Source: Girardia tigrina (lineage: Eukaryota). From it: 56,909 bases of DNA. The translations under genes were made by a program, and so were the position numbers. The number at the start of each line of letters is the position of its first letter. Within the stretch, counting starts at the first letter, position 1. The notes under the pieces are model-generated. The model saw only the letters and a list, made by a program, of their open reading frames with translations, was not told the origin of the DNA and made no database searches. Below, piece after piece: positions 7,999 through 55,685 of this stretch. The stretch covers positions 1-56,909 of the forward strand of contig MQRK01169664.1 of assembly GCA_001938485.1 (NCBI GenBank). The letters are read 5' to 3'.

Positions 7999-8122
7999 TG
8001 TGAGAGAAAATTCGGAATGTTGTAAGTTTGTTGTTTGTATGCTGTTTAGATTGGTGACTCTCCTACTCAGATGGGAATGTTATGTTATTGATTCATTGTT
8101 TGAATCTAATGAAATTAATTTA
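7999..8122 (+). mobile_element. 5' fragment of dispersed TGT...ATA element
   Basis: tgtgag...gtgactctcctactcagatggga; closely matches the copy at 39262. Confidence 0.75.
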
Positions 8123-9039
8123 GTGAGCAGAAGAGAAGAAAATAGGATGGTGTTTGTGTTTATGACACCGTCGGCAATAAAAAAAATATTCAGAGATGAA
8201 CGGCAAAAATTGAAGGCTGCATTTACTAAAGAAAAATCCATTCTGGATACAATGAAGGATTTGTTGAAGGATCTTCCAACCCAAAAAAAACATACAAAAA
8301 AGCAGAACTTATGAAAACACTAACAAAAGAAAAATTGCCTGAAAGGAACTACTCAACCTTGCCTGTATAAATATGGTTGACAGTTATAAGTTTGTTTAAA
8401 TATTAGATTTAAACATTTTTTGTGGATAATAATAAAATTTGGATGTTTAAAGTAACTCTCAATAATAATTCCGAGGATTTTCCAAAAACATCTATTAGCC
8501 GCGATGAAAAACCAACCGGGTTGAATTTACTGGCGGTCGATTTGAGCGAATACGATACGATCAACTCATTCGGAGACACGGAGTAGGCCGTCGGACGGTA
8601 AACTAAGGGTCAAACTGAATCAGCCGTCATCCAAGATGGGACCGATTACCACGTATATGAAGGCACCGATCGGAAAGTCCTCGAGGACTGAACAGAAAGC
8701 CGATGTCATAATGCGTGCCGACCGAGAGCCAATGGTTTGAACCACTTTACGAGCGACTGCAAAATGTGCTGTGTCATAGAGTGAAAAATAAAGAAACAAA
8801 TTTTAAGTAACCATTTATTATTTCACAATTCAGAACATGTTTCACGACAAAAAAGTTTCCTATTTTTTATTTCTTTTGTTTATATTAATCTCATATTAAG
8901 TCCTTTAAATTAATTTAAAAAAATAAAATTGACATTTCAAAATCTTTCTGAAAATTGTTTCATTAATCTGAAATTTAATAAGCTATGTTTTTTCAACAAA
9001 TCAATTTTCGTTATCAAACATGAATAATGAATTTAAAAT

Positions 9040-9136
9040 AAATTATTAAAACAAAATTTGATTGGACGAATAAAAAATTAACGATTAATTATAACAAATA
9101 TTAACACTATTTTTTAAATTAATAAATAAAGTTGCA
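9040..9136 (+). promoter_or_regulatory. Conserved proximal upstream region of LicD copy A with an inverted CCAAT (ATTGG)
   Basis: About 100 bp nearly identical to 36395-36491, containing aaatttgattggacgaa. Confidence 0.5.
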
Positions 9137-9507
9137 ATGTCTTGTTTAAGTGTGTCTTCGATTAATATAAATAATAAATACTTTAAAATATTCTTAATTT
9201 TTTGTATTATTTTCGTGTTTATTGCGTTGGTTGGTCGGAATAAGGAATTCCTGTTCTCTTACGAAGACGTAAAATCTGAAGAAAGTATTTCGTTTCGTAT
9301 TCAATATGAAATGTCTCCATCAGAGATCTTCAATTACAATCTTNNNNNNNNNNNNNNNNNNNNNNNNNNNNNNNNNNNNNNNNNNNNNNNNNNNNNNNNN
9401 NNNNNNNNNNNNNNNNNNNNNNNNNNNNNNNNNNNNNNNNNNNNNNNNNNNNNNNNNNNNNNNNNNNNNNNNNNNNNNNNNNNNNNNNNNNNNNNNNNNN
9501 NNNNNNN
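9137..9507 (+). CDS. LicD/fukutin-family protein copy A, exon 1 (3' end in the N gap, inferred from copy B)
   Basis: N-terminal TM anchor (IFLIFCIIFVFIALV); 15 differences in 207 readable nt versus the exon at 36492. Confidence 0.8.
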
Positions 9508-9597
9508 NNNNNNNNNNNNNNNNNNNNNNNNNNNNNTATATATATATATATATATATAAATAAAATGAAGAACAAACGCCATTTAAAAGTTTTTTAT

Positions 9598-9640
9598 TTC
9601 TGAAAACATGTTTCGCCATTACGGCATCATCAGTTGTGAA
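9598..9640 (-). ncRNA. Degenerate minimal type I hammerhead ribozyme of a Penelope-like element
   Basis: Minus strand reads ttcacaa-CTGATGA-t-gcc-gtaat-ggc-GAAA-catgtt-ttcagaa: core boxes, 3-bp stem II, palindromic helix III, helix I with 2 mismatches; lies just 3' of a GIY-YIG C-terminus. Confidence 0.65.
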
Positions 9641-9960
9641 GTAAATTTAAAATTACAAGTCATTTATATGGCACATTGACTATTAGGCAATTAATCTTAT
9701 TTTTTTTAATTAATAATAAACGATTTTAATATGATTGGATAATTCACTTTGAACATTTAAGCATGGTTTTAAATGCTTTATTAATAATGCCTCAGTGACT
9801 ATCCTCTCATGATGTGTCAAAATTTTTCTTCAAAACTGTAAATTCAGTTTCATAGTTAACTTTATCTCTATTTCTGCATTTTTTAATGGTGTTGGACGCA
9901 CTAGAATAGCTGAACACACCCAATTGAGTAGGAATAGTTCGATTCTAGATCACATTTATA
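9598..9960 (-). mobile_element. Penelope-like element 3' remnant (GIY-YIG) with inverted 5' piece
   Basis: Minus strand KKCRNRDKVNYETEFTVLKK...ERIVTEALLIKHLKPCLNVQ; plus strand RTRIAEHTQLSRNSSILDHI at about 9897-9956. Confidence 0.7.
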
Positions 9961-12212: not shown

Positions 12213-12629
12213 TGTGAGGAATGTTTTGAATTGTGTGTTGATATTGTGCATGTAGAATGTTGATTCGGATTGTGTCTCTCCTACACAGATGCATGATTGA
12301 TATTTTCTTTGATTTCTACTAATTAAAAATAATTTAATTTAATCTTAAAGTAAAAAGGTTTTAAATAATTATTGAATGTATTATTTATTTTTTAATGTAA
12401 TTTAAAATTTTAATATATTAATTTAATATGTTCTTTTTTTTTAAAAAATGTTTAGATTTAATTTTAACCATTTAGATTATTTATAATTAATAATTTTTAT
12501 TAACAGATTTTCATTTATTGAAAATAATTAGTTTCAACTCAGAAATATATTGATCAAGAGAGATGTCAAATAGTGAATGCGCTTGTGATATCAATAAATG
12601 TTGTAAACCTCATATTGATGTTGTTAATA
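12213..12629 (+). mobile_element. Dispersed TGT...ATA element (solo-LTR-like), full copy
   Basis: 5-bp TSD atact (12208-12212, 12630-12634); empty-site paralogue at about 11905-11950. Confidence 0.9.
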
Positions 12630-14653: not shown

Positions 14654-14866
14654 AATATAAAATAAAAATATAAAATTTAAATATTAAATATAAATATAAA
14701 ATATAATTAATATAAATAATGTTTATATAAATATTAATATGAACATACAATGTAAATATTTTTTTTAATATTTATATATTTTCATATTTAAATTACATTT
14801 TTTTTAAGATTTAAAAATAAACTAATAATAATTTACATATTTCGGTACATAAACATATTTCTTTAG

Positions 14867-14978
14867 ACACAAAGATGTTATACCTTGGGACTCGGATATG
14901 GATTTTGGAATCTCCAGTCAATATGAACAGCTTATTAGAAATATCAGTACCAGAAGAAGCGAAATGAGGGCAGATAAA
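14867..14978 (+). CDS. LicD copy A exon 2
   Basis: ctttag|A CAC... HKDVIPWDSDMDFG...RADK|gtattg; contains the IPWDxDxD nucleotidyltransferase-fold motif; phases fit exons 1 and 3. Confidence 0.92.
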
Positions 14979-15829
14979 GTATTGCTAGATACATTTTTGA
15001 AACGTTTTTTAATAAATATTTATTTATGAAACTTATCATTATATGACTTAAGTTTTATTACCTAATATGACTGTTGAACGCAAATCATTATAATTTATAA
15101 TTAAAATATAATTTAAATATTAAAATAATACATCAAGTAAATATTATCAGAATAACTAAAAATGCTGGTGAAGTGGGAGTTTCCGTGGGGTACCCATTTG
15201 CAAAAAACAAGGAAAAGACAGAAAATGATACAAAATTTATTGATCACAAAATAAATTTTATACGATTTTTTTTGCAGTTCGCTCACGGTTAAAAAAAATG
15301 TCTAAATTGCTTTGAATTTGTGACATTCGAATTATCTCCGTTGAAACATTAAAACAATTGTTTTCGTTTTTTTTATTACATATTTAATTTACATTAATTT
15401 CATGTGGAAAAATTCTTGGGTCGAATGATCCCGATATTCTTTGTGAAAAAAAACTTCTGGGAATTTTAATTTTGTAATTATTAAATAGTTTTGCGACAAC
15501 AAAAAAAATAAAAGAAATTTAAATTACATTTAAATAATATTTAAATATGTGAAAAAATTAGCGTGCTTTGATTTGTTGTTGGAAATGTTCACTACAGCTG
15601 GTATCAGTATAGGTTGAACATTAATTTGTTTTGATTGAATTTTCAAGCTTTGAACTTTGGATGCCATTGAAACCCCTTTGACACTACCTATATTCTTGTA
15701 AATACTCTTCTTAAATACTTAAAATCATTCAGAATATGGAAGTTTGATCATTTGTTTCTTATGTTCAATATTTTCTTCATTTAGTCCATTCTTAACCTGT
15801 ACAAGATACAATATTTATAAGATACTATT

Positions 15830-16899: not shown

Positions 16900-18440
16900 C
16901 CAGCCTCCTTCCATAACTGGAGCGTTAGGTGTTAATTTATTAGTTGTCTTTTGTAACTAGTTTTATTCTTCTGAGTTTGAAGTATTTTTCATTATTAGGG
17001 TGCTTGTTGATTTTGTTTAGTTAGCATTATAGGTAGTCTTGTATATAATGTTTTATGTCTTTACTCATGTTTGACCATATGATTTGGTTGTGTAAAATTG
17101 TATATGTTTTTTTGTATCCAAAGTGACCAAGGGTGTGTATTTTTAAATGCCTTTTCTCTTAATTCCTTTAAATTAAACGTCGTGGTATCTTTAGATAGTA
17201 TCATATTCCTTGATTTTTTTCATTTATTAGAGATTTTGTATCTCTTGCTTCTGTTTTCACTGTTTTTTGTTTGTTGATGAGGTTGTCTTGATTTATTAAT
17301 TGTGAAAATTCAATTTGATTTATTGTTGTTCTGGATAGAAAATCTGCGACGACATTCGATTTAATGGGTATATAGGTGATTTGGCATTGGAATTCAGAAA
17401 TAAAACATGTTTGTCTAAGTTGTCGTGGCGATGGATTTTTCATTGTTAACACATGTATTAGTGGTTTATGACCTCTTTGTATGATAAATGTTCGATTTTC
17501 TGGTATGTATTGATTTATATTATTGATTTATGTATGCTTAGTAAGTCTTTATCAAACGTAGAATACTTTTGTTCCTTTGTTTTGGGTTTTTTTGTGAAAA
17601 GAATCCTAGTGGTCTATATTCTTTGTTTATGTTTTGATCGAGGGTTGCTCCTATATGCTATATTTGATGCATCTGTAGTTAGTGTGAATTCACCTTCGTT
17701 TTGTAGCATATATATTTTGGTTATGTTATTTAATTGGTTTCTGATATTTGCGAGTGTTTCATCGAGTGTTTTTTTTCCATGTGATTTCTTCTGTTTTTTG
17801 TTCTCTGTTAATTCTGACAAAGGTGCTAGTATTTCTGAGCAGACTTGAATGCACTGGTGGTAATAATTTGTCATACGTATTAGTCTTCTCATGTCTCTAA
17901 CGTTTTTCGGTTTCGGCAATTTTTAAATTTGTTCTATTTTCTCTTTTTACTGGATCGATTTTATTGTTTTTTTTATTTTACATCCTTAAAATGATATTTT
18001 TTCTGTAAAATATTCACATTTGTTTTTATTTACCTTAAGTCCATTATCATTAAGAAGTTTGAATAGTTGAATGAGGTCCTCTTTGTGATTCTTTTCATTT
18101 TCGCTACCAATTATAATATCTTCTAGATTGGCCATTGTGTTTTTCGTATTTATTAATATGATAATTATAGTTTTTTGCAATGTTGCTGCTGCGTTTTTTT
18201 AATCTGAAAGGCATGCGGTTGTATTAGTATAACCCAAACGGTGTTGTTATTGCTGTTTCTGTTGTGTCGCATGGATTTATCGGTATTTGGTAATAGGCCT
18301 CATGTAGATCAACTTTACTAAACATGTTTGCTTGATTGAATCTGGTAATAACTTATTAATGGTGGTGGATATGAGCCATTTATTGCGATTGCGTTCAGTT
18401 TGCGGTAGTCCCGCAGCAGCGTAATTCCCCGTTTTGTTTT
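16900..18440 (-). mobile_element. Ty3/Gypsy pol remnant (RT, RNase H, start of integrase)
   Basis: [37 protein letters not shown]...NVVADFLSR; many frameshifts. Confidence 0.88.
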
Positions 18441-18687
18441 TAGAAGTTTATATGAAGCACAAATAAAACAGAAGTGATATGTTTTTTTACGAAAAAATGA
18501 AAGTTGATTCCGAAGTGTTTTCTATCCAGTTTTTGAATAGAAAAAATGTGTTGATAATAAAGACAATTATATTGAAATATATTTTTTATTAACCTATATA
18601 AAAATGTACTTGTTGAAATAACCTAATTTATTACAGGACAAATATTATACATATATATTATCGTTATTTTATTTAATGTTTTTTCAG

Positions 18688-19074
18688 GTTAACCTCGTAA
18701 CCAGACCAGCCCAACATTGTCCATACAACGGTCCCCGCCTCAATTGTAAGGGAGAAAGTGTAACGTCTCAAGTTGATGATTGCGCATTCTGTGGACCTTT
18801 AGCTCGGCTGATCTATAAAACATATCGAATTGATATATTTCTTTTTCATATCGATTATTTTGATGATGAACTTCAAGTTGGCATTGAAGGAATATTCGAT
18901 TACATGGACAAAATCCCCCGCCTTCCGGTGGATGTGTATTTCCCGTTAAGAAACTGTTCTTTTATGGGTCTTAAATTGCAGTGTCCAAATAAAAAAGAAA
19001 AGGCTGTTACATTTTACTATAAATCAATTGATATGAAATATAAATGTGTGAATCAAAAATGGGTGAAAATATAA
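18688..19074 (+). CDS. LicD copy A exon 3 (terminal)
   Basis: ttttcag|VNLVTRP...RIDIF...YFPLRNCSFMG...CPN...WVKI*; 9 differences in 387 nt versus 49697-50083. Confidence 0.92.
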   Translation, partial: VNLVTRPAQHCPYNGPRLNCKGESVTSQVDDCAFCGPLARLIYKTYRIDIFLFHIDYFDDELQVGIEGIFDYMDKIPRLPVDVYFPLRNCSFMGLKLQCPNKKEKAVTFYYKSIDMKYKCVNQKWVKI

Positions 19075-19765: not shown

Positions 19766-20440
19766 TAAAACATCGTTACGATTGTGAGGAATATTTTAAA
19801 TTTGGTATGTTGAAATTGGTTTGTTGAATTTTGTATGTTGAGTTTATTATTTGGAAATGTGTTTCTCCCACCCAGATGGAAAATTGATATTTTAGATGTT
19901 CACGATAAATAATTATTCGAGTATAATTTATATTTTAAAGTACAGCATAAGATATGTAAAAACATTAAAAATATTAAATCTTTTTAATTCTTCATATTAA
20001 AATTTAAATAAAATAAATAGTTTTAACTAAGTTTTGAATTAATTAAATATTCTTTCTTTACATAAAATAATTTTTAAATAAAATTAATATGTAAATAAAA
20101 ATTAATACTAATTCTACAAAATTGAATTTTAAAAATAAAATCAGAAAATAATGAAAAATTTGTTCGAATAATTGTTTATTAACAAACATTAATAAAAGAT
20201 TATCAATTTAGAACGATGTCGAATGACGAGAGTTTCGATGAGAGTTGTCCAAAAGACAATTCTGATTGTAATGAAAATAAAAGTTTGAAAAGCCATGTTG
20301 GTGTTCTTAATAACGATGATATCGGTTAATTCGATTTATCGGTTAACTCGATGAGATTAGTGAGTCCCGTGTATTTAACATTCATTAAAAATATGAATTT
20401 GAATGTTTAACTAAATTTGAACAACTCGATTAATTTATTC
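19766..20440. mobile_element. Tigger-like MITE terminus split by the TGT...ATA element
   Basis: Rejoined sequence taaaacatcgttacgatgatatcggttaattcgatttatcggttaactcga...gtcccg has the short-repeat pattern typical of Tigger ends. Confidence 0.4.
19783..20312 (+). mobile_element. Dispersed TGT...ATA element, full copy
   Basis: 5-bp TSD acgat (19778-19782, 20313-20317); core tttctcccacccagatgg; interrupts a Tigger-like MITE end. Confidence 0.88.
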
Positions 20441-20824: not shown

Positions 20825-22635
20825 ATGACAACTATGTTTATGAAACCAATAAACTACTCAAATTGTGATAAATATAGGAAACGAAAAATTTTAGGAAACA
20901 CAGCGATGAAGAAATTTTGAATGAACTTTTGAAAAAGTGGATAAAATCTCAAGTTCCGAAGGATCGATTTTTTTTCAAATCTAACATATCAGTGGAAAGA
21001 AATGAGAGCTGATGCTAAGATTTATGAGGACAACATATCAAAACAAGAAAGAAATGATGTTTTAGCCGTCAAAACATTGTATGCAGGAATGGCAAAGAAA
21101 GACAAACATCAAGTTAGAAGATGTGAGAATCCTGAACATAGAAGAAATACAGCTCGATTGAATGAAACAAACGATAGACAACCAATATTGAGAACGGAAC
21201 GAAGAATATCATCGGAAAGATTTAATACAAGTAATGAGAGATGATCCAGTATAATGTCAGAAGATAAATAACAATACAATCGCCCGGTGCATTCGGCTTG
21301 GTACGAAGCAAGGAAGTTATATTTCAAAATAAAGAGACTTCCGACTCCAGAAGAGGAGCATTTAACCAGAGGGGATTGTTATTACTGTGGAAAACATGGA
21401 CATTTGAGGAACGATTGTCCTTTAAATAATCGTTGTTTAATCCGTGGAAAAAGTGGACATGGGTTCAGAAACTGTAATCATATTAAGAATATAAATGTAG
21501 CACGCATCAAAGATGTGTACAATGAAGAAAACGTGGATATCGTATCATATAAAGATGAATAGGAAGATGATTTAAATGCCAGAGACTCCATGATGGGCAT
21601 TTCGTCTGTGAAGTCGGTATAAAATATCCAAAAAAAATGAATTGCAGAGCTAGTAGAGGGGTAAGATGGTATATGATGGAGCGATGTTTAGCTGAACAAT
21701 CACAATGTATTAATGTTGTGGGATAGTGGAGCAGGTGTTTCAGTTATTATTTAAAGGTTTAGTTGGAAATCGGACAACTCAGATTAGAAGAGTCCAATTA
21801 TATGAAATGGAGCGTTTTCAGAAGGCCATAAGTGTTTGGGAAAAATTACAGTGAAGTTGAAATGGAAAGAAGAGTGCCATGCGGTAGATTTTTTAGTGGT
21901 GAAAGCAATCCAAAAAGCATTTATTCGAGGTGTAAATGTCATGTATAAATTCGGAATCAAACTTGAGAAAACTACCAAGAAGTCAGTTGTGATGGTGGAG
22001 AAATATATAAAGCTGCACGAGCAAAACAAACGACTGAAAGAGCTCGTGAAACGATATGATGATGTTTTCATGAAACGTGAATACGATTTGGGATTTACGG
22101 ATATTGTGGTCCATAAAATTGAAACAGAAGGTAAACCGATTTTTCTGAATCCAAGAAGGCAATCATTTAGTAAGTCAAATCGAAGGATTTTTGAAAGAAT
22201 TAGAAAAGGCATCTATAATTCGGAAATGTAAAAGTGAATGAAACTCCCTGTTAGTCATTACGCCAAAGAAAGATGGAGGTATTCGAATTTGTTTAGATTT
22301 CAGACAATTGAATGATGTATCAAAAATGTTTCCTTTCCAATACCAGACAGCCAAATGTTAATGGATGCTTTGCGTGGCTCCTGATTTTTTTCCAGTATAG
22401 ATTTAGGCAAAGCATACCATCAAGTAGCATTGGATGAAAGTTCTCAAGAAAAGACTGCATTTTGCATAAGAACACAGCAGTATTGTTTTAACCGTGTAAC
22501 GTTTGGACTTTCAACAGCAACCGGAATGTTTCAGTGAATAATGAATTCATTATTTGAATATTTACTATTCTTTGGAGTAGTAATATACCTAGATGATGTC
22601 TTAATTTACTCAAAATCATAAAAGAAATCATAAAA
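20825..22635 (+). mobile_element. Ty3/Gypsy remnant: gag (two CCHC), protease, RT
   Basis: CYYCGKHGHLRNDC; LWDSGAGVS; KKDGGIRICLDFRQLN; IDLGKAYHQV; IYLDDV. Confidence 0.9.
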
Positions 22636-23205
22636 CCGGTCGTGTTGCTACATAATGTGATTCTTTTCCTTGTGATTCTTTCTTTCGACATTTTCCAACC
22701 AACGCATTTGTCTTTGAATTTGAATAATAGATGGATGGTGACGATCTTCATGAATGCATCAGCAATCACAAAATACAAAACACGACTAAATGAAGGAAAC
22801 TCTAGGCAAGGAATGTTTACAGATTATAGACATGCATATGACAAAGACCAGGAAAACGAGGATACATGATCACAAGGAAAGGTGATCAGTGTCCTTCATT
22901 AAAAAGTAAAAATGTTGATGTATCTGATTGTGTCTATAATGATTGAGTGTTGGAAGATACCCCTATCGCAGTTTGCGAATTAGATTGTTGGAAAGAAGTA
23001 TATGATATATAATGTTTTAATAAGGAAATAAAGACAAATCAGAAAAAGTTTAACAAGGAAGAAATGTTGAAAATATGAAGGCTTAATATTCAAAATAATA
23101 TATTAATTTATGATACATTAGATATGATATATTACATCACTAAATTCAATTTTACATATACATATTTAAAATTGTAGAAAAAATGATTTAATGTACAAAT
23201 TAATA

Positions 23206-24999: not shown

Positions 25000-26012
25000 T
25001 AGGCAAGAAGGAAATTGTGTTTTTCCATTGGTTCCGAAGCAAATTAGAAGAGATTTCGTCAGGAAAATACACAGAGATTTATATCATGTAGGTATCTAAA
25101 AGACAAAGAAGTAAATCCAAAATCATTTTATGCCACCAGATTTACCGAAAGAGGTACAAATCGTTATAGGAGAATGTCAGGAATGAATAAGCAGAAAAAA
25201 TTCCAAGTGAAAAAAACAAAAGAGAAGTTGATTCCAATAATAAATGATGAGTTTTTAGAACAAGACGTGATGGATATGTGGGTGACAAGAATATCATCTA
25301 TTGGTCATGGTGGACCAGTTTTCGAAATCGGTCTCTGACAGAGATTAGAACTCAAAACGAAGACGAGTTCAATGCGTGTTGATAAAATGGATAGATATTG
25401 AAAGCCAAAAACAATATTAACAGACAATGAAAATGTTTTACTGGCGGAAAATTTTAAGATTTTTGCAGGAAATATGGAATTGAACAAATATTTAGTAGCC
25501 CATTTCAACATCAAACGGTTTGGCAGAAAGAACTATTCAAACAATGAGAGAAATTATAGTAACAAGCAGAGAAGACAGAGACAAACGATCATGGTGGCAA
25601 ATTGTTCCGAAGATAGAATTCTGTCTAAATGCAACAGTTCAGAGTACGACCGGATATTCGCCCTTTGAAGTTGTGTTTGGTAGAAAAATAAACTTACATG
25701 CGGCAGCAGGAATAGCTAAAACGGAAGAGAGCAACGTGATCAAGATGAAGGTAAGAGAAAATTTAGAGAAAGCGGTAAGATGAATGGAAAATTAGGAGAG
25801 AGAGAAGAGAACAAATCGACATTTCGAGGATGGTTAGAAAGTCTTTGTAAAACAAGATCCTACAAAACTGAGAAAGGACACTTTCCCATTCGATGGACCG
25901 TACCAAATTTTAAGACATATATCGCCACACCAATTGGAGCTACAGAATCTGAAAGATGGAAACATAATTCGTCGAAGAATTGAGTGGATTAAGAAAGTAA
26001 ACAACGAATTAT
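25000..26012 (+). mobile_element. Gypsy integrase remnant, probably the continuation of 20825-22635
   Basis: PKTILTDN; NGLAERTIQT; EFCLNATVQSTTGYSPFEVVFG; FDGPYQI (GPY/F). Confidence 0.85.
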
Positions 26013-27959: not shown

Positions 27960-29600
27960 TGTTCTTATTGGTGACCACAGTAACTCAAACCTCGAAATGC
28001 AAGAAAGCTAAAGAAAGACGAAAATTATTTTCGAAATAAAGACTAGCAACTCAAGACACATCATTTTTTGATGATTAATCATATAATGCAGCGAAATAGC
28101 TGGACGAAACAAAGAAATTTGCATTATTCAACCAAATGGAAATTTCATTCACGTTTGACATGCCATCTATTATTGAACAAATTTAGTTCAAATAGAAAAC
28201 ATTTATCCAAGAAAGACGTGTTTTCAGCAAAATTTACTAGACTGAGGATTGTCATGGACAACGTCATGCAGCTTAATAACGTTTCTGAAAAGAAACGAAG
28301 AACGATATAATTTTTTCAAGTTATCTGTAAGATCATTAGTTACAGACATTTAGAAGACGCCATTATAATAAGCAACCAGAACATTTATTTTGGAACAAAT
28401 ATTCCTGCAAAAAAGTGTCTTACAATGGCCAGTATAATGGAACAACTATCTCTTAAATAGATCTTACATTTGATATTATTACAAATAGATCTAAAAAAGA
28501 AGATAGATCGAAACGGATGATAGTTTACGGATTGAGAGCCCTAAGTGAGAACAAAAAGGGCTATTGTGTTACCAGAAAAGAATTATTAGCGTTGAAAAAT
28601 AACTTGGTATATTTCAAACATTATTTATATGGAAAAAACATTTTAGGTTCGTACCGATCATAAGGCTTTTTTATTTATGTCCCCGGCAAACAAACCCCTA
28701 AATTCTTAATTTCAAACATGAAGTGAAGATATGTGTGGTTTTCAATATGACTCGCAGTACTTGAGAGAATCAGTACATTCAAATGAAGATGGGATCTCAA
28801 TATTGTGTTTGATGTATGACAAAAAATGTTGGAGCTATAACGAGTAAAATTAAAGTAAAGTATTTTAACACTTGTAGCACAATAGATCTCCATCATATCA
28901 AGGACATTCAATGAGAAGATAAAAATCTGGAAATTATTATTGTGAGGAATGTTTTGAATTGTGTGTTGATATTGTACATGTTGTATGTTGATTCGGAATG
29001 TGCCTCTCCTACCCAGATAGATGATAGGTATTTTCTTTTATTCTTACTAATTAAAAATAATTTAATTTAATTTTAAAGTAAAAAGATATAAATAATTTTT
29101 GAAAATATTATATATTTTTTAATGTCATTTAAATTTTCAATATATTAATTTAATATGTACTTTTTAAAAATGTTTAAATTTAATTTTAACCAATTAGATT
29201 CTTTATAAATAATAATTTTTATTAAAAGATTTTCATTTATTGAAAAAAATAGTATGAATTCAGAAATATATTGATCAAGAAAAATGTCAAATAGTGAAGG
29301 CGCTTGTGATGTTAATAAATGCTTTAAAACTCATATTGATGTTGTTCATAATTATTTCATTAGAACTTAATGAACAACCTTCAATAATTCAGTCACAAGG
29401 TCCATTGTGAGCATTCAATAACCACTCGATATTAGAAAATGAATTGCTGCCTTATCGAGATAGAAATATAAAATGCATAGTTGTTCCAAAAGCTGTTCAA
29501 CAACAATTAAGTCAGTCATCAAACTTAAATTCACATAGGATATGAGAAGTTGTATTATTATATGCAGGATATTTACTTCTGGCCACAAAGAGACTCATCT
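27960..29600 (+). mobile_element. Highly degenerate Gypsy pol (RT, RNase H, integrase zinc region), interrupted by the element at 28941
   Basis: GYCVTRKELLAL...YFKHYLYGK...VRTDHKA; IVVPKAVQ...HIGYEKLY...FWP. Confidence 0.75.
28941..29350 (+). mobile_element. Dispersed TGT...ATA element, full copy
   Basis: 5-bp TSD attat; colinear with 12213-12629 along its whole length. Confidence 0.9.
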
Positions 29601-35470: not shown

Positions 35471-35479
35471 CAAAACATG

Positions 35480-35950
35480 AATCATGAGTCTCATTTGAAT
35501 TTTTTAGCAATTACATTTAGAGTCATTACAACTCTCAGAAGGTCTTTCATCGTTTGCCATCAGTCTAATTGGTTTTCTTATTTCTATTTTTAATCATGAT
35601 TATTTGAACAATTTTTCTAAGTTATATTTTAAAATATTTAACCTCTAAAAAATATTAATTAAAAAATAATAATTTTTACCATTTCTCAATAAATCTCAAA
35701 ATAATAAAAATGTTATAAAATTATTAAAAATGCATTTAATTTAAATTTTACTAAAAATTATTGAACTTAATTTTAATTGTGAAATTAAAAATGTGAACTT
35801 ATCAAATGATTATTTTAATTATGTTCGAATAGTCAATCCTTTAAATTTAATAAAAAAATTCCAATTTCCATCTGGGTGGGATAATCACCATTCTAAATTC
35901 AGCATACTTAAATCAACATACAACATCCACACATTTACACATTCAAACAA
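35480..35950 (-). mobile_element. Dispersed TGT...ATA element, inverted partial copy
   Basis: Core ccatctgggtgggataatcacc at about 35869; closely related to 44240-44634. Confidence 0.65.
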
Positions 35951-36394
35951 AAATAGCAATAAGTTTAAAAGCAGTCTATTAAATAATCTTTATTACTGTA
36001 TAAAACAAATCAACTCAAGGTCAAAAGATACACGTGTACCTTGTGTCTTTAGGAATGGCATGTATGCCAACAAATCGAACTGCGTTTGGATAAATGCTAT
36101 GCGGTAAGTACAAAGCGCGCGAACTGCACTCGTTCAAAGGAAAGAAGTGAAAGAAGTAAAATATGAATATTTGGAAACCGTTATATGATATGCAAATATT
36201 AGAATATCGAGTAAATTATTGGATAGATACATATTTAATTATACATACAATAAAATTAAATTAATTTATATGGTTTCATGATTTTTAGAAATTTAATTTT
36301 TTAATATATTATAATTATTAATTTGAAATTAAAGGAATTAATTTTTTCAGCAAAGCAATTTACGTTATCAAATTTAAGTAAATAATTTGAAATA

Positions 36395-36491
36395 AATCAT
36401 TAAAACAAAATTTGATTGGACGAATAAAAATTTATCGATTAATTTAAACAAATATTAACACTATTTTTTAAAATTAATAAATAAAGTTGCA
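36395..36491 (+). promoter_or_regulatory. Conserved proximal upstream region of LicD copy B (ATTGG/CCAAT)
   Basis: Near-identical to 9040-9136. Confidence 0.5.
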
Positions 36492-36862
36492 ATGTCTTGT
36501 TTAGGTGTGTCTTCGATTAATATAAATAATAAATATCTTAAATTATTCTTAATCTTTTGTATTATTTTTGTGTTTATTGTGTTGGTTGGTCGGAATAAGG
36601 AATTCCTGTTCTTTTACGAAGAAATAAAATCTGAAGCAAATATTTCTTATCGTATTCAATATGAAATGTCTCCATCAGAGGTCTTCAATTACAATCTTAA
36701 TGAGTCTCTCCCGCCATATCAAGATTCGGATAATCTGAAAAATTGTTCCATCCAAACTAATAGAACCCTGGTTTTTGAAATGATCAAGTTCTGGATGAAT
36801 CTTACGGCTTTTTATGGTATACCCTGGTGGATAGATTTTGGTACTTTGCTTGGAAGTATAAG
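36492..36862 (+). CDS. LicD/fukutin-family protein copy B, exon 1
   Basis: TM anchor, stem, then YGIPWWIDFGTLLGSI(R), the LicD GTLLGxxR motif; donor ag|gttaga, phase 2. Confidence 0.92.
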
Positions 36863-36914
36863 GTTAGATTAATGATTTGATGTTTTTTTGGTAATTTTTA
36901 CTAAAAATTATTCG

Positions 36915-37091
36915 TTCCTCACAATATTTATATTTTATATTTATAGTTTATATTTATATTTACATTTTATATTTATATTTCATATTTATATTTAATATAT
37001 AATTTATATATTAAATATAAATATGAAATATAAATATAAAATGTAAATATAAATATAAACTATAAATATAAAATATAAATATTGTGAGGAA
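36915..37091. repeat. AT-rich perfect palindrome, 88-bp arms, 1-nt spacer
   Basis: ttcctcacaatatttatatttt...tatataa t ttatata...aaaatataaatattgtgaggaa. Confidence 0.9.
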
Positions 37092-37685
37092 TATTTGGTG
37101 TGTTGATGTTTTTGTGTTGTTTGTATGTTTAAATGTTGTGTGTTGATTTGGGATTGTGCCTCTCCTAATCAGATGGATGATTAATATTTTAATTCTTATA
37201 ATCTGAAACTAATTTATTAAAATTTAGATTTAATATTCAAATTNNNNNNNNNNNNNNNNNNNNNNNNNNNNNNNNNNNNNNNNNNNNNNNNNNGGGATTG
37301 TGCCTCTCCTAATCAGATGGATGATTAATATTTTAATTCTTATAATCTGAAACTAATTTATTAAAATTTAGATTTAATATTCAAATTTTTAATTTTTAAT
37401 ATTGTAAATTTTAAAAAACTTTATTGATATTTTTTGTAAATTTTTAAATAATTAAAATCAAATTAATGTTTAAAAATGATTATAAAAAGTAATTTTATTT
37501 TAGCCAATAAAATTTAATGTCAATATTTTAAATAAAATAATTTTCTTCTAGTTAGTTCAGATAGGAATGAGAAGTATTAAACATTGAGTGATGGATTTAA
37601 GTGAAAGCAATACTATTGATCGTCGTAGAGATCATCAAAATTGTGAATGTAATAACTGTTCTGTCTAATATGTGAGTTCTCTTAA
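37083..37685 (+). mobile_element. Dispersed TGT...ATA family element (ends ...ctcttaa); contains a gap and a gap-flank duplication
   Basis: tgtgaggaat start; core cctctcctaatcagatgg; TSD aatat in low-complexity DNA. Confidence 0.8.
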
Positions 37686-38031: not shown

Positions 38032-38348
38032 TATTAAGAACACCAATATGACTTAATATTTTTATTATTAAAATACGTTTGATTGTCCTCCGGACAATGT
38101 TTTTCAAAGCTTTCGTAAGATTGCATCTGTCTAATTGATTAATGACATTAATCTTATTATTTGAGTAAATAGAGAAATACATAAAATTTTATTGGTTAAA
38201 AATTAAAAAAAAATTATTATTTTAAAAATATTAAATTATTTTTTTTATTTTTTTAAAAATTTTAAATGAAATTAATAAACTTATTTGAAATTTTACAATT
38301 ATTTTAAATTAGAAATAAATTTAAACATTACATATTTTCAGATAATAA
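38032..38348 (-). mobile_element. Dispersed TGT...ATA element, inverted 3' part, abutting the SIAH fragment
   Basis: Begins tattaagaacacc (reverse complement of ggtgttcttaata). Confidence 0.7.
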
Positions 38349-38726
38349 GTGTTTTTGATAGAGATCGGCGAAACATTTCGGTGCTGGGACCATTTGCATG
38401 ACGCTCCCGGACACGGACACACATACGGGCCGATACTCACACGAGATTTCATGGTGACCTTTAATCGTGTGCTGATACGTGTCCGGACACCCGTTCGACG
38501 AATATTTGCACGGAAACAACACACTGGCCGCCAACTTCTCCATCGCCAATTTCCTGATATTATCCAGTCCACTGCGACACGATGGACAATTCGACAACTT
38601 GATCCGACACTGGGCACACATGATATGCTCGCTCTGGCACTAGATAATCGGCGGCAGCTCGTAATCGAAACTCACTGGACACTCGGACAAACTGGCCATA
38701 TCGACCTGGTTTTGGTCGGGCGACAT
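38349..38726 (-). pseudogene. SIAH: SIAH/Sina E3 ubiquitin ligase pseudogene (RING plus zinc fingers, 3'-truncated)
   Basis: DMASLSECPVSFDYELPPII*CQSEHIMCAQCRIKLSNCPSCR...IRKLAMEKLAASVLFPCKYSSNGC...CEYRP/(frameshift)YVCPCPGASCKW; stop at 38640, RING Cys to Ser; coding may extend further upstream. Confidence 0.92.
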
Positions 38727-39261
38727 TTTTCGGTTCTGACTGGTGGCGGCGACTGTGGCGATGAGATTCGTCGACGAATCGGTGACGGCGTTAACGGGCG
38801 GTAGAATCGTCAAGCGGAGACACTTGTTTGAGCAGAGAAAATCGCTGACGCAACTGTTTGAATCGTTGAGATTATTGATCTCGGACGATCGAGGAAATGA
38901 AAGTCGTTCAGCTTCAACGAAAGACGTGGATAAATAGAAATCTGCTTTCTTCAAATTGACGCTAATGCGATGCACCTTCAATTCACGTATATATCATATA
39001 AACTATTGAAATGATTCCATAAATCCGAAATGGTCACATCGGTGTTGCGGAGTTTGTTTAAAATATAAATAATTTGAAAATTTTCATCGAATCCCACGAG
39101 TAAATGATTCATTAATAAATGATAGCATTTAATTTTCGTGTTAATATTCATTACGAGTGGAATTTCAAAAAAAAATCGGCTAATAACTCAATTGAATTCA
39201 AAGTTCTCAAATTTCGAAATATTTATTTATTTTCAACAAATTACAAAATTTTTAGCGTATT

Positions 39262-44239: not shown

Positions 44240-44634
44240 ATATTCAGTTGAATTTTCAAGTATTGTTGAAGTAACTTTTTTATTGATTTTCCCCATTGAT
44301 AACCTTCAGTCCATTTTTGCAGTTCAATAGTTGTCATTGTCCAAATATTGGTCCAAAAACCGAGAAAAAGGCATTTTTCTCTGAATTTTCTTTTTATTAT
44401 AACCAGATTGTGCGATTCTAATGCATTGTTTTAAATTAAAATATGTTAATTAAAAAATTTAAAAATATGAACTTTATAAAATGATTATTTTAATTATGTT
44501 CGAATAGTCAATCACTTTAAATTTAAATAAATAAAATACCAATTTTCATCTGGGTGAGAAAATCACCATTCTAAATTCAACATACTTAAATCAACATTCA
44601 ACATCAATTCAAACAATTTAAAATATTCCTCACC
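44240..44634 (-). mobile_element. Dispersed TGT...ATA element, inverted copy
   Basis: catctgggtgagaaaatcacc...aatattcctcac; 3' boundary approximate. Confidence 0.7.
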
Positions 44635-46430: not shown

Positions 46431-48289
46431 GTAAAGCTAATGATTTTATCACGGATTTTATAGAAATTTATTCTCAAAAGACTTTATAAAAATTGATGTC
46501 AATGTGTGTACTGAGGAAACCATCGTAACTTTGAATTTTCTGAATGTATCTATTAAGTTCATGGTTGGGTTTGTATAAAATATTTCAACTAAATATACAA
46601 ATATTTGTGAAAACAAAAATGGGGAAAACCATTTAATTTTAAAATGAATCCCACAAAACATTAAGAGAACGAAATACGGCCCTCATCAGGGCTACAAATG
46701 ATGGTTGTCGAATTACGATCCAGAAGTGGATATTTTTAGATATTTTCGAGTTCTAAATGCATCGCTCTAGTGAGTAAACAAGAAAATAAGAAAAGGTTTC
46801 TCTGTTCTCAGTGGTGTCAGCAACCTTTTATCGTCTCAAAAAGTTCAGCATAATCTACAGCTGCTTTTAAGAATGCTTAAAAAAACAAAAGTAACAGTGA
46901 TACTTTTCTTCGATAGTGATAGAATGTGATAGAACAATCGATCACATCATCTGGCAACTCGGTGTAATATTAGCAACAGTTACTATCATTGTCCCCGTCT
47001 CTCACAATCGATCGACTAACTCACAACAGACACTTCCAATCTCTTCTGTCAGTCGCCGATTTCCTTCGATCGATTCTCGGTGGCGATTCGCGAGCCAATC
47101 TACAATTTTCATTGATCTGACGATTGTCGTAAAAACACGAACAATAATTCTCGACGATTTTCTCGTTGTCGAGTTCAAATTTTATCGTAATCGTGAGTAA
47201 TTCAATTGTTTCATTAACGGAAGATTTTTCTAATTTAATTTGATTTGTGTAGAGATATTCGAGTAAATATTTGAAAATATTCAGCTACATTTATTGTAAC
47301 ACTAACGGACTTGTGAAGTCTTTGCGACTCATTTGATTGACAAGAATCGATTTGAATATTTCACAGCGCGCAGTTAAAATGCATTTGTGACCATAAAACA
47401 ATTTCCGCTCGGGACCGATTTCAAATTGCACATCACTCATCAATTGATTGTTTATTAACTTTTTCATTTAACACACGATAACTGTCGAACTACCTTTGAT
47501 TACCTTTTCAACCATTTCGTCAATTAAATTGTTTCAAATAGAAAATTGATTATAAAAAATTGGTTAATTTCAATCAAGAACAAATTTCGCGCGTTCAAAA
47601 CGTTTATTCAATTTATTTCACTTAATTCGACAAAACAAAACAAATTTTAAATAACAATTCTATTAAATTCGATTAAACCTATTCATACAATTTCTAATGT
47701 TTTTGAATTAATACAAATTTTTAAAATTTTATATAAAACATAAAAAATAGTTCAATTATATGAATAAAATATTTTAAATCAATTTGAACACAAAAAATTC
47801 TGACAAATTTACGAATCACAATTTCGCCATCACTAATCAAAACGACAGATTCATATCCAAATAATGAAACCGATTGAAAATAATATTACAAAATAGACTA
47901 CCAAATTAAAATGATCGATTTAACATTTATTTGTTGTAAATGATCAATAAACTTGATTGAGAATTTGAAATTGCGTTTGGAAAAATCACCGTTTTCGAAC
48001 TTTTCAACAATTAGACTTTTTTATAAGAAAAGTCAAAACATCGCAAAACACTTGCTTAGTTGGAAATCTACTCCACCATAATAGTTTCTTGAATGTTTAT
48101 TCTTTGAATAAAGAATCGCGCATGCTAACTTTTATACTGTATAATAATCGGCAATGTTAAATCAGTTGATTACCAAATTGAACAACTCGAACAGCTAATA
48201 CATCTCAGCACACCGCTAGGATCTAAAAAAGGATTTAGCTTTATCAAAATTGATTTTTTTGTGAATAACTTTTCTCTTTACTAGTATCT

Positions 48290-48470
48290 CAATGTCTGAA
48301 AATAATTTAAAAGGAAAGTTTTTTTGAATAATTGTTTGTTAACGATAAATAAAAAAATCTTATCAATTTAGCGAGATGTCAAATTACTAAAGCTTTGTGG
48401 AGAACTGTTCAAAAGACATTTCAAACTGATGAAAATAAATGCGTGAAAACTCATTGTGGTGTTCTTAATA
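48290..48470 (+). mobile_element. 3' half of dispersed TGT...ATA element
   Basis: Colinear with 20140-20312; ends ggtgttcttaata. Confidence 0.75.
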
Positions 48471-49480: not shown

Positions 49481-49696
49481 CCTCACTGATATATTTCTTT
49501 AAGAAAAAAAGCAAGTTGACTCCGTATAACATTCTCTATCCAGTTTTCGAATAGAACAAGTGTGTCGATAAAACAAGACAATTATATTGAAATACCTTTT
49601 TTAATAACCTTAATAAAAATGGACTTGTTGAAATAACCAAATTTTATTACAGCACAAATTTTATATGTAATTCTTTATATTAATAAAATTTCCCAG

Positions 49697-50083
49697 GTTA
49701 ACCTCGTAACCAGACCAGCCCAGCACTGTCCATACAACGGTCCCCGCCTCAATTGTAAGGGAGAAAGTGTAACGTCTCAAGTTGATGATTGCGCATTCTG
49801 TGGACCTTTAGCTCGGCTGATCTATAAAACATATCGAATTGATATATTTATTTTTCATATCGATTATTTTGATGATGAACTTCAAGTTGGCATTGAAGGA
49901 ATATTCGATTACATGGACAAAATCCCCCGCCTTCCGGTGGATGCGTATTTCCCGTTAAGAAACTGTACTTTTATGGGTCTTAAATTGCAGTGCCCAAATA
50001 AAAAAGAAAAGGCTGTTACATTTTACTATAAATCGACTGATATGAAATATAAATGTGTGAATCAAAATTGGGTGAAAATATAA
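49697..50083 (+). CDS. LicD copy B exon 3 (terminal); spliced product 289 aa
   Basis: ttcccag|VNLVTRP...WVKI*; open and in phase 0 with exon 2; missed by the ORF track because it has no upstream start. Confidence 0.93.
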   Translation, partial: VNLVTRPAQHCPYNGPRLNCKGESVTSQVDDCAFCGPLARLIYKTYRIDIFIFHIDYFDDELQVGIEGIFDYMDKIPRLPVDAYFPLRNCTFMGLKLQCPNKKEKAVTFYYKSTDMKYKCVNQNWVKI

Positions 50084-50597: not shown

Positions 50598-50995
50598 TGT
50601 AAGGAATGTTTGGAATGTTTGATGTTGTTGTGTCTCTCCTACCCAGATGGCTGATTAATAATGTAATTCTTATTACCTGAAACTAATTTAATTGAATTTT
50701 ATTTTTAATTTAAAATGATTGTAAAGTTTTTAAATGATTTGATTAATTTATTTTAGATTTTTAAATAAATCAATCAAATTAAAAATTTTAAAATAATTTA
50801 TGTTCATTTCAATTTCATCCTATTAAATTCCTAATAAATATTTTAAAAGGACCTTTAAGTGTCAAATTGATTCAGATAATTGTATATATTAATCTATTTG
50901 AATGATGTATATGAATAAATTCTATATTATAGATTGTCAGGAGAATATTTTTAATTGTATTTAAAAAAACATAACCAATGTGTGAGTTCTTTTAA
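50598..50995 (+). mobile_element. Dispersed TGT...ATA family element, TSD not preserved
   Basis: tgtaaggaat start; core gtctctcctacccagatgg; end tgtgagttcttttaa. Confidence 0.8.
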
Positions 50996-51129
50996 CGTGA
51001 CGACTTCACATCAAGTCAGAAACATTTGATAGATCCCTGCTGAAGTTAGAGGAATTTCTTTTAATTTTTAACTGATATTCAATCAATATGCGCTTATCGA
51101 AAAAGAAGAAAATCTATGTGATAACACCA

Positions 51130-52065
51130 TACAACAAACCCGCTTTAAAGAACCCGAAATTGCGAAAAACCTGGTTCAGTCAAAAAATAATGTAGCCCCT
51201 GCTGAAATCTGGAACATTACATGCACATAAACACCCGCTTTAACGAACTCTATTTTAACGAAAACCCTGATTTAACGAACATTTACTTTACACTCTATCA
51301 AATAAAAACCTCGATTTAACGAAAATTCGCATGTCGTACACCCTGCTCTCTTTCATATTCTCATATTTTTACCTTTATATTATCACGTATTGAACATCGA
51401 TAGAAAATAATGTCTTTCTTTGCCTTGTATATTGACTGAATCAGACTGTTATTGTCTGTGAATTTGATTTAATTAAACAATTGTACATTGTTATACTTAG
51501 GAAAATTCTTAATATGTAAAATTAATTAAAAATCATAAATTAAAATTTAAAAGGCATTTGTTTTTCTGTATTATTTTTTTAATGATACGAATACAGCAGA
51601 CATAATTATTCACAAGCCTCTGGAGTGTAATCAAAGCGTTTTTACATCCTCCATCGGCAAGAAAATTGAATTGATTCGAGATGCTTATGATAATCCCTTG
51701 CAAAACGTGGGATTAGCAAGGAAGTAAGTCTTTTCTGTGAGCACTGTAACGACTATTCAAACAATGAAAGAAAAAATCAAAGAAGAGTGGCACACACTGC
51801 AGCAGATTCGACAAGAAAGCACTTAAAAGCGTCCAGCCTTCTAGAGAAAGCTCTAAATAAGGCTTACACAACAGCGCATCTTGACTGTACCGATTAGTAA
51901 ATTTTTACTGGCAGAAGAGGTACGGCAAATTGCACTGAAACTCGACATACAGTACTTTAAATTGAACAACAATTTGATCAACCGTTTAAAAATAAGACAT
52001 AGTATTATCTTTAAAGCTGTACAAGGAGATTCTGGAGTTACAGATAAATATGTAATCTATCACTG
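51130..52065 (+). mobile_element. pogo/Tigger 5' part (subterminal repeats, HTH_psq, CENP-B HTH)
   Basis: Repeated tttaacgaa motifs; VPISKFLLAEEVRQIALKL...RLKIRHSIIFKAVQGDSG. Confidence 0.8.
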
Positions 52066-52099
52066 AAGAACAAGTATTCAGCCCTCTCTATTTCAGTAC

Positions 52100-52930: not shown

Positions 52931-53164
52931 ATCTGATAACAATAAACAAACAAACGTTTAATGAATAAGCCAACACTACACAAGGGGTTGAGAGAGAAAT
53001 TTGTAAAAAAAAACATTTAATTTTGAAACAAAATTCGCAAAAATCTTGTAATTGAGATTTGTTTTAGTGTCGAAAAACAGTATTGAATGTTGAGGTGCCA
53101 GCCACAGGACCGAGCTGTGGCGATCAGCATCTCTTTGTCATGCGGGAAGTGGTCACCTGGCGGA

Positions 53165-53700
53165 ATAGATTAACTTGAACAAGTTAAGAGTTTCAAGGAC
53201 TTAAGCTATATTATCACAGAGAAAGGAAGAATGAAAGGAAGAAATCAGAAACCGGATTGGTATTGCAACAAACTCAATGATAAAGCTTCGCACAGTTTAA
53301 CTTCAAAAACATCAAATTCAAGAGCATCACAAAGTCACTAAGGCAATTGTATGGGTGCTACAAGAAAATGATGAAGATCACGTGGAAAGAAAAATAAGAC
53401 AAACGACTTTGTCTGGAGGATAGTGACAGAAACATTAGGTAAAAGACTGAAATCAATAGAAGAGACCATCAAGATAATTCTACGAAAATAATATGAAAAA
53501 CAAGCGCTAGCGAAGGTTATGATTAAAAGAAGAGTTGACGATGAAAAACAAAAGAGACAAAAGACAGATGACTTAACAGAATGGATTGGATTGAACAAAG
53601 GAAGTCTGGGAAAAGAGGCTACAAATAGAGAGATGTAGTGAAGACTTATACATAAATGAGTTCACCAAAGGCCCAACGGCAAAGGTACAAAAGATGAAAG
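53165..53700 (+). mobile_element. RTE-like LINE, fragment downstream of RT
   Basis: LEQVKSFKDLSYIITEKG..(frameshift)EEIRTRIGIA; LYGC. Confidence 0.65.
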
Positions 53701-53914
53701 AAAGAATAATATTAATTTTGAAAATTCCAAAATTAAAGAAACAATAAATTAAGTATTTGTTTTTATATTTCATTCTCTTTATGTATTAATTTTTTTGTGT
53801 AAAAGAAAAATTGTTCCTCGAAAATTTGTTCAAAAACTTGTTATTGTGTTAAATTAATAAAACCGACTTTCACTGTTAATATCGAACATAACATATACTG
53901 TATAACAATGTAGT

Positions 53915-54445
53915 GCACCATTCTAAAAAAGATAGTACTTCTCAGGCATCGCCAAATATTAGTTTTTACAGGAAGAAAGTGACGTAGTGTATTTGGTGGG
54001 ATGTAAAGGACTAAGTCTTCTATGAGCTACTACCGAATAATCAGACTATCAACTCGTTCAAGTAATGTGAACAACTTGATATTCTGAAGACAGCTCTGGT
54101 ACAAAATCGGCCTGCCTTGTTTAATAGAAGAAGAATATATGTTCAACAAGATAATGCGCGACCACATACATTTGTAACCATCCTACAGAAGTTGGTATGA
54201 TGAATTTGGGATATCGTATCTAACCATTCATATAGACCGGATGTCGCACCATCTGACTACTATTCATCTGATCCCTACAAAATTATCAAAAAGAAAAAAT
54301 ATCAATTTTTTGAACGACATGAAAATTCATCTTGATAGATTTTCCGATAGTAAATACGAAGCCTTATAGAGAGATCACATTATGTCATTGTCTGACGTTT
54401 TGTCCAGATTGTTACAAAATAATGGACAATATATTTAATAATTAA
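53915..54445 (+). mobile_element. mariner 3' half, degenerate
   Basis: WWDVKG; YELLPNNQTINS; QQDNARPH; YRPDVAPSDYY; NNGQYI*. Confidence 0.85.
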
Positions 54446-54520
54446 AGTTTTTGTTCAATATTGTATTTTGGTTTGAATTTCCAAACTCGACCGCTCTATC
54501 TTCCACAATCCAAATCGATT

Positions 54521-54811
54521 ATGATGAATCAGATTTATAATTATTCATTTACCTTCAAATACATCATAATCAGCGATATCGGAGTCCGCAAGAGTTTCTT
54601 CATGCACCAGTTCACCGTGAAGAAATTTATTGCAAATTGTCCACATACGATCAGAATGGAATTCAGCTTGAGTATCATCAAAATCAACGTTGAGAAGATA
54701 GAACTGCAAATTTTGAATACTGCGAGATAAGAGCAGTCCCAGGCTGTAATGCGGTCGTATTATTGAGGTTTAGTGGGTGCTCTGCTCGTGAATCATGTAA
54801 CACACAACTAG
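54521..54811 (+). pseudogene. RAB14: RAB14 pseudogene fragment, intronless
   Basis: [43 protein letters not shown]...[27 protein letters not shown] aligns with the Rab14 N-half; P-loop destroyed, two stops. Confidence 0.9.
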
Positions 54812-55685
54812 TGTGAAATGTTTGAATGTTAAGTGTATTTGAATGTAGTGTGTTTATTTGGGATTATTTCTTTCCTGTACAGTTGGATGATTAATATTTT
54901 GATTCTTATTATCTAAAACTAATTTAATTTAAGTTTAATGTTTCAATTTAAATTTAATTTAAATTTTTAAACGAACAAAATCAATTTGATATTTTTACAA
55001 ATAATTAGAAGTCATTTTAATTTTATCCAAAAAAATTATGAGATATCTATTTTTTAATTTTTCAAGTAAAAAAAGTCATAAAATTTGAAAAAAAAGAAAT
55101 ATTAATCTATTGAATGATGCAAATTTACAAAAGCTTTGGTTATCATTGTCCAAAGGACAAATCAAATTGTTACAAATAATATGTCTAATAATATTAGTGT
55201 TGTTGGGAACCTGTTATTGATAATAATACAATGATAATCTGTACGAGCTAGTCAGGCAAACATACACGTAGTGTAACTGGGAAACTAGAATGGGTTCCAA
55301 TCTACCCCTAAACGAAAGTGTTTGAAAGAAAGCAGAATAATGGTCCTTAAACTCCGGTTAAAAGTCATAGAACTAGTAAGCCAGTAACCCACTTACGAGA
55401 CTAAGCTATTATTCTGAGTGTGAGGTCAGTTGAGCTGATCAGCCGTAATTATGATTGAGAACAGCTGTGAAGCATGGTGAACCCGCGAATGAAAGTGAGA
55501 AAGCATTTTTATGATATCTGATGAATCATTCAGTTTGAGCAATTTTGCTATGATGTTTGTAATCAGGCAGAAAAAAACTTTAACGATAGTCAGTTTGGGG
55601 GAAAAGCTTGAAGACACTATCAGCGTCCAAGACCTACTAAAGAACATTTGACTCAATAATGACAGTTTCAGTAGTGTTCTTAATA
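54812..55685 (+). mobile_element. Dispersed TGT...ATA element split near its 3' end by another insertion
   Basis: tgtgaaat start; diverged core; terminal gtgttcttaata reappears at 55674-55685. Confidence 0.7.
55201..55670. mobile_element. Candidate solo LTR (TG...CA, 470 bp)
   Basis: tgttgggaac...cagtttca, nested inside the element above; TSD not clean. Confidence 0.5.

Follow-up and report, generated by a model that had tools for sequence, protein, structure and literature searches.

We analysed a 56,909-nt stretch of Girardia tigrina DNA (assembly GCA_001938485.1, contig MQRK01169664.1; hereafter the window), in which an original prediction from the sequence alone had described about 12 copies of a non-coding repeat with TGT...ATA ends, 5-bp target-site duplications (TSDs) and a conserved 17-nt core. 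The repeat had been read either as a solo long terminal repeat (LTR) or as a non-autonomous element. The first of these options stood: with a probability of about 95%, the copies are solo and partial LTRs of a clade of Ty3/Gypsy retrotransposons. The second is not needed, since the LTR flanks a primer-binding site (PBS), gag, pol and a polypurine tract (PPT) in two metagenome contigs, L001 and L002. The non-canonical TG...TA end is real in at least four families of this clade, perhaps not in a fifth.

Complete elements and the copies in the window

A scan of the metagenome contigs with the LTR head plus core gave no matches; a degenerate form of the core gave three, two of which (L001 and L002) carried the whole LTR head. 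The third (L003), all 16 viral matches and the one genome match of the core scans lay in other contexts and were discarded as chance matches. A relative of the L002 pol was also sought in the viral contigs and not found there. The 4950-bp contig L002 has the order LTR-PBS-gag-pol-PPT-LTR and thus contains the paired LTRs around gag and pol. It opens with part of the 5′ LTR (1–247, ending AATA), which is abutted without a spacer by a PBS starting with TGG; the PBS of L001 abuts its LTR likewise. The gag gene (181–1299) is an open reading frame (ORF) of 372 amino acids with two CCHC zinc knuckles, and pol, in the -1 frame, encodes protease, RVT_1 (E 1e-36), RNase H, Integrase_H2C2 and rve in this order, as assigned with Pfam. 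The PPT, GAGGGGGA, stands directly before the TGT of a whole 3′ LTR (4473–4885, TGT...AATA), which is followed by flanking sequence. The 5′ part and the 3′ LTR are alike at 228 of 246 aligned bases. L001 consists of flank, whole 5′ LTR, PBS and gag. The LTRs of these contigs are 93% and 90% like the window copies 12213 and 28941 (copies are named here by their first position).

The same arrangement is found in contigs assembled from sequencing runs. Those of X1 and X2, the two DNA runs that contain the window, and of X14 cover 30 of 30 bins of L002:100–4620, and those of X22 cover 11 of 30; X22 is only presumed to be an RNA run and was not taken as a sign of expression. One X14 contig bridges the LTR-PBS junction of L002, a tail of the 39262 type runs into this junction in 23 X1 contigs, and one X22 contig leads from the PPT into an LTR head of the 19783 type. 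The best PDB match of the L002 pol is the reverse transcriptase of Ty3 (E 5e-73); this yeast enzyme is the nearest solved relative (PDB 4ol8, 7q5b). In a quick tree, the L002 reverse transcriptase falls into a long-branch clade (SH-aLRT 99) with seven unnamed metagenome proteins, and the 120 reverse transcriptase matches include no named element, only automatic names. As to class, the integrase of L002 does not precede the reverse transcriptase as it does in Ty1/Copia, and the presence of gag and pol sets the element apart from terminal-repeat retrotransposons in miniature and other non-autonomous elements, which have no coding internal region. The TSDs of 5 bp lie within the 4–6 bp of Ty3/Gypsy.

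In the window, all 12 listed copies were located. Five had been claimed as full copies with TSDs, and four of them (12213, 19783, 28941 and 39262) indeed run from TGT to ATA between exact 5-bp direct repeats, with a joint chance of about 2e-11 as estimated from base composition. The fifth, 37083, does not: it reads CTCTTAA within an AAATAT repeat instead of ending in ATA, and contains an assembly gap and a 94-bp duplicated contig end. The two copies described as near-full are both present, with 50598 ending in AACG and 54812 interrupted by a 467-bp insert. The ends TGTGAGGAAT and GTTGTTAATA are complementary no more than expected by chance; the repeat has, as predicted, no real terminal inverted repeats (TIRs), such as would mark DNA transposons of the Ginger or Transib type. 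On the other hand, the statement that no copy adjoins a PBS or an internal region has to be withdrawn, given that 50598 is followed by a decayed PBS and gag and that 7999 is fused to gag. The latter copy was also considered as a carrier of host cargo, an idea rejected because the sequence is gag.

The ends of copy 28941 were probed by comparing 28700–29600 with contigs of runs X1, X2, X14 and X20. Summed contig depth in X1 and X2, which is not a copy number, is in the hundreds or thousands on either side of the element but reaches about 4 million over the head of 28941–29350, with sharp edges at 28941 and 29350 where it jumps by orders of magnitude. At these two edges, 98 and 87 X1 contigs exit into unrelated flanks. 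Moreover, read contigs contain empty sites, in which the host repeat lacks the insert and has a single ATTAT. The ends of 28941–29350 and its 5-bp TSD are therefore real, and the LTR family is clearly very abundant. X20, which is labelled as another organism, yielded only 35 reads on 28700–29600, every one less than 90% alike and confined to the AT-rich parts.

Four window copies stand alone between TSDs, as they would if the 400–500-bp unit were not an LTR but a non-autonomous element that is mobilised in trans or as DNA. However, the unit flanks PBS-gag-pol-PPT in L001 and L002 and is joined to these parts in read contigs, TIRs are absent, and the tails match Gag N-termini (see below); we consider such an element extremely improbable. 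The TSD-flanked copies were likely left as solo LTRs through LTR–LTR recombination.

Gag codons and the TA end of the LTR

The repeat had been described as lacking an ORF, whereas a frame opening with ATG occupies its last 67–97 bases and matches Gag N-termini. The gag frame opens 22–33 codons before the LTR end and reads across it; at this base composition, the chance of so long an open frame is 0.04–0.11 per family. A Gag search returned seven clusters, 43–74% identical to one another, and the window tails pair one to one with the N-termini of five of them: 12213 and 28941 with P0155, 39262 with P0156, 19783 with P0158, 37083 with P0160 and 38032 with P0161. As the tails match different Gag N-termini, the diverged subfamilies of the repeat belong to separate families within one clade, of which they are the LTRs. 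In most families, the part of Gag encoded by the LTR has many Cys and His residues and may perhaps bind metal.

The tail codes for V-V/L-N, and the last A of the LTR together with the TG of the PBS forms the ATG of the following Met. The resulting motif N-M-A-T is invariant: of the 81 listed members of the Gag clusters, 54 extend to the junction, and all 54 have it. AATAAA begins exactly 37 bases from the LTR end in eight of 11 ends (35 in one, decayed in two) and encodes N-K of Gag, 11 residues before N-M-A-T, a spacing shared by 53 of the 54 members. A CCAAT-like box lies 160–180 bases from the LTR end, again in eight of 11. An AATAAA followed by a GT-rich stretch commonly serves LTRs as poly(A) signal, according to an excerpt of PMC3601003, and in this the LTR end resembles those of Ty3/Gypsy elements. 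We infer from these motifs that the CCAAT-like box and AATAAA may serve as working promoter and poly(A) site. The conservation of the tail is explained by the overlap of gag codons, poly(A) signal and PBS. Among 48 long, more distant Gag relatives, 31 have N-M-[A/S]-[T/S] after upstream residues, seven start with M-A-T, five show another form and five none, a pattern which would fit an AAY-A end followed by the PBS across a wide clade. The Gag relatives P0237–P0298 come from metagenome or read assemblies, and none of the ten looked up bears a name.

The LTR ends in ATA in seven of the nine window copies whose 3′ end is present and in all three LTR ends of L001 and L002, so that local decay, the reservation attached to the original prediction, does not account for it. 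None of the readable window ends has the canonical CA: of the other two, one reads AACG and one is unreadable. The claim that TA recurs across diverged subfamilies held for 12213/28941, 19783/48290, 39262 and 38032; it is in doubt for 37083/50598, where the only readable junction has C. This P0160 family may have kept CA, in which case TA would not be clade-wide. T or C at the second-last LTR base is a silent difference in the third base of an Asn codon of Gag. For this reason, we rejected the idea that Gag coding forces TA, as both AAT and AAC encode Asn.

Since AACA followed by a TGGCG PBS also gives N-M-A, the history was likely one C-to-T change at the silent Asn position. In retroelements, each replication cycle passes a U5 change on to both LTRs; a transition from an ancestral AACA to AATA, once in U5, would have spread in this way. 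The integrase likely joins the U5-side TA end as it would CA, and the U3 end would retain the canonical CA on the joined strand. RNA would start downstream of the CCAAT-like box and be cleaved after the AATAAA at -37, reverse transcription would be primed by a tRNA, and Pol would be produced through a -1 frameshift. In L002, the slippery heptamer GGGAAAC stands in phase ahead of a hairpin (z -2.5) at 1248–1295, where pol opens in the -1 frame, and Q-G-N is kept in six of seven Gag types; together, heptamer and hairpin are a likely frameshift site. As for the primer, the PBS may be that of tRNA-Arg. It is conserved across families over only about 8–10 bases, the fold of the LTR-PBS junction (z -1.3) is no better than shuffles, and tRNA genes looked for in the window were not found. 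The first ten PBS bases are identical to those of a site for which PMC4724089 considers Arg or Trp.

Several points weigh against the reading of the repeat as a Ty3/Gypsy LTR with a TA end. A whole element between TSDs is present in no single sequence. L002, a metagenome contig and possibly a blend of copies, is without a 5′ flank, and a change of frame within the RNase H region breaks its pol. Gene-calling programs begin a frame at the first ATG available, and the use of the ATG within the LTR is a prediction. The 50598 junction, AAC-G-TG, is a single step away from AACA, and the end of its family member 37083 is unreadable. The terminal bases of the other Gag families come from window copies only, and Asn masks the difference between T and C in the proteins. 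Finally, AAT makes up 68 of the 95 Asn codons of L002 (72%), and T may be no more than tolerated in the face of AT pressure.

The last point leads to the question of why TA is kept. If the integrase is relaxed at the U5 end, AT-biased mutation would have produced AAT independently in several families. The codon usage of L002 and the C of copy 50598 are in line with such tolerance, and the plant elements TARE1 and AcCOPIA1 (see below) illustrate that a single altered terminal base can become widespread; yet ATA closes ten of the 12 ends that are readable or expected, in families whose Gag proteins are only 47–74% identical. We give this explanation about an even chance. It departs from the LTR reading preferred here only in why TA is kept, and between an integrase that prefers TA and one that only tolerates it the balance is near even, slightly towards tolerance. 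A more ambitious interpretation, which we put forward tentatively and hold to be rather doubtful as a whole, is that of an undescribed, very successful Ty3/Gypsy clade whose integrase would be adapted to asymmetric ends (CA at U3, TA at U5). Selection would then hold TA at a Gag-silent site, the last 40 LTR bases would combine the roles of Gag codons, poly(A) signal, integrase site and half a start codon, the rest of which the tRNA primer site would supply, and the LTR end would also be behind the capture of host genes. In any case, the natural CA/TA contrast at a silent site within one clade could show cleanly how strict a Gypsy integrase is about its U5 end. With the LTR identity, the repeat becomes a known kind of object and the earlier mystery is removed. 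LTR finders that demand TG...CA would miss this group of families, which by a rough sum makes up about 8% of the window.

Compared with known systems, the element shares with Ty3/Gypsy (Metaviridae) the order LTR-PBS-gag-pol-PPT-LTR, the succession protease, reverse transcriptase, RNase H, integrase, a CCHC Gag, 5-bp TSDs and solo LTRs. It differs in its U5 end ATA, which forms no inverted repeat with TGT, and in a gag frame that starts in the LTR and crosses the PBS. As in the element described here, the gag frame of yeast Ty1 opens inside the 5′ LTR, which holds the start codon and the beginning of Gag, and extends through the PBS; however, Ty1 is of the Copia type and has TG...CA ends. The TG...TA type itself is already described in plants. 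Excerpts of the sources consulted describe a TGTA class of plant LTR elements in LTR_retriever, whose non-canonical elements are 89% Copia and 11% Gypsy (10.1101/137141), the onion element AcCOPIA1 with TG...TA ends (cited in PMC5659011), and the mirror case TA...CA of tomato TARE1, which spread to 354 copies (PMC3701649). As in these, one terminal dinucleotide is altered by a single transition, the TSD is 5 bp and copies are many. The plant cases, however, are mostly Copia and usually single families, whereas here an animal-type genome, Gypsy elements, several families and a change within a coding frame are involved. In animals, the LTRs of Zam/errantiviruses (AGT...AYT) and CsRN1 (...AMA) depart from strict TG...CA as given in Table 3 of PMC3601003, the excerpt of which also states the general 3′ attachment consensus YNYAACA. 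These are likewise Metaviridae with ends off the strict form, but Zam and CsRN1 are without TG...TA and the element described here has no env gene; the comparison is by description. A literature search for animal Gypsy elements with TG...TA ends or with a gag start in a Gypsy LTR returned plant cases only, the punctuation of such terms limiting these searches. PMC4202319 and PMC4558846 were consulted as well and yielded nothing further on LTR ends. The family may already be catalogued in Repbase, Dfam or GyDB, which lay outside our search, and Table S2 of LTR_retriever might list Gypsy elements of the TGTA class.

The 17-nt core

The core lies in U3, about 35–80 bases from the LTR start. The conservation claimed for it stood in a looser form: the 17 bases are exact in only one of 12 copies (at 50634), and eight copies have at most three mismatches. 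On balance, we somewhat favour a transcription-factor site, for which E-box or YY1-like would be the fitting names. A CANNTG box is kept in nine of ten cores, which argues against a linear signal acting in the RNA, i.e., a second primer-binding site or a packaging signal in U3. In favour of such a signal, the PBS has only about 8–10 conserved bases across families, and split primer sites exist in Ty3 and reportedly in Drosophila Gypsy. However, the U3 heads have no conserved fold (five of five at shuffle level, z -0.14 to +1.77), Rfam has no match over the LTR, and no complement of the core of nine bases or more occurs within L002, and we regard an RNA-level signal as unlikely. A splice acceptor, with its pyrimidine run, CAG and following ATGG, would account for the CAG that is invariant in all ten aligned cores; yet the frame after the core closes within a few codons and there is no need for an acceptor at the start of U3, which leaves this use of the core distinctly improbable. 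Elsewhere in L002, Rfam gave two weak matches, both below the gathering score and outside the LTR.

Feature list and other sequences of the window

The features of the repeat are collected in the table below. Two additions concern its surroundings: a different Ty3/Gypsy gag-pol remnant begins 630 bp after the LTR 19783–20312, and the joint of the 746-bp deletion in the L002-family internal remnant (427 to 1174/1175) is also present in X1 and X2 contigs.

Table 1. LTR copies, internal remnants and example motifs in the window.
Feature	Position	Strand	Evidence
Solo LTR, TGT...AATA, TSD ATACT, L001/L002 family (Gag P0155)	12213..12629	+	93% to L002 3′ LTR; last codons 82% to P0155 N-terminus
Solo LTR, TGT...CATA, TSD ATTAT, inside another repeat, L002 family	28941..29350	+	Empty sites, depth edges, 89.5% to L002 LTR
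Solo LTR, TGT...AATA, TSD ACGAT, Gag family P0158	19783..20312	+	31/32 residues = P0158 N-terminus
Solo LTR, TGT...AATA, TSD GTATT, Gag family P0156	39262..39701	+	25/26 residues; tail joined to L002 junction in 23 contigs
Solo LTR, Gag family P0160; final two bases lost or unreadable in AAATAT repeat; gap 37244–37293	37083..37685	+	
Decayed 5′ LTR, P0160 family, end AACG (C second-last)	50598..50997	+	
Decayed PBS and gag start after 50598 LTR	50998..51141	+	tblastn of P0160, E 6e-9 (match 50976–51141)
P0156-type LTR head fused via internal deletion to gag codons (8147–8390)	7999..8390	+	
LTR ending AATA, without TSD, with 467-bp insert 55205–55671 near end	54812..55685	+	
Headless LTR, P0161-type, ending AATA; 5′ side joined to broken Siah fragment	38032..38348	-	
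LTR 3′ part, P0158/P0159-like, ending AATA	48290..48470	+	
LTR remnant with core and Gag N-terminal codons; both ends lost	35480..35990	-	
LTR 5′ part with core; 3′ part missing	44440..44634	-	
L002-family internal gag/pol remnant with 746-bp deletion	22734..23090	+	95% and 81%
Example 17-nt core in U3	29004..29020	+	
Example multi-use LTR end: gag ATG and first 22 codons, AATAAA at -37, terminal ATA	29284..29350	+	

Some LTR copies stand next to foreign sequence. A broken 5′ fragment of Rab14 (54520–54800, + strand; PDB Rab14, E 3e-21), comprising about 85 codons without an intron, has the orientation of the 54812 LTR and ends right in front of it; an LTR-mediated retrocopy and a chance insertion are both possible. 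A broken 5′ fragment of Siah/sina (38349–38990, - strand; Pfam Sina_ZnF and Sina_RING) replaces the head of the 38032 LTR, to which it is joined where the core would be; neither a TSD nor a PPT was found at this junction. The insert in 54812 is bounded by two near-identical 10-bp repeats and separates the gag ATG from the tail; Pfam found nothing above noise in it, and by eye it is weakly like the start of a pogo-type transposase. LTR-mediated capture, described in an excerpt of PMC5131818 as template switching between host mRNA and element RNA, would explain the joints of Rab14, Siah and the 54812 insert; the LTR identity thus offers template switching as a mechanism for host-gene scraps joined to LTR tails. 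A further scrap is an isolated BTB/POZ fragment (47294–47467, - strand, E 4e-6).

The window has a G+C content of 29% and is rich in mariner-type and Ty3/Gypsy remnants, including many mariner/Tc1/pogo pieces. Other decayed Ty3/Gypsy families lie at 6253–7288 (-), 35189–35490 (+), 17200–18350 (-), 20945–22620 (+), 25431–25993 (+) and 28460–28800 (+); they are 27–39% identical to the L002 Pol or have an unrelated Gag. Finally, exon pieces of the LicD family were observed at 9095–9343, 14853–15026, 18622–19071, 36459–36869 and 49637–50080. A homologue search with a LicD-like exon, meant to place the host group, returned nothing. Two of the pieces occur twice (9095/36459 and 18622/49637), which suggests a tandem gene duplication whose introns contain most of these insertions.

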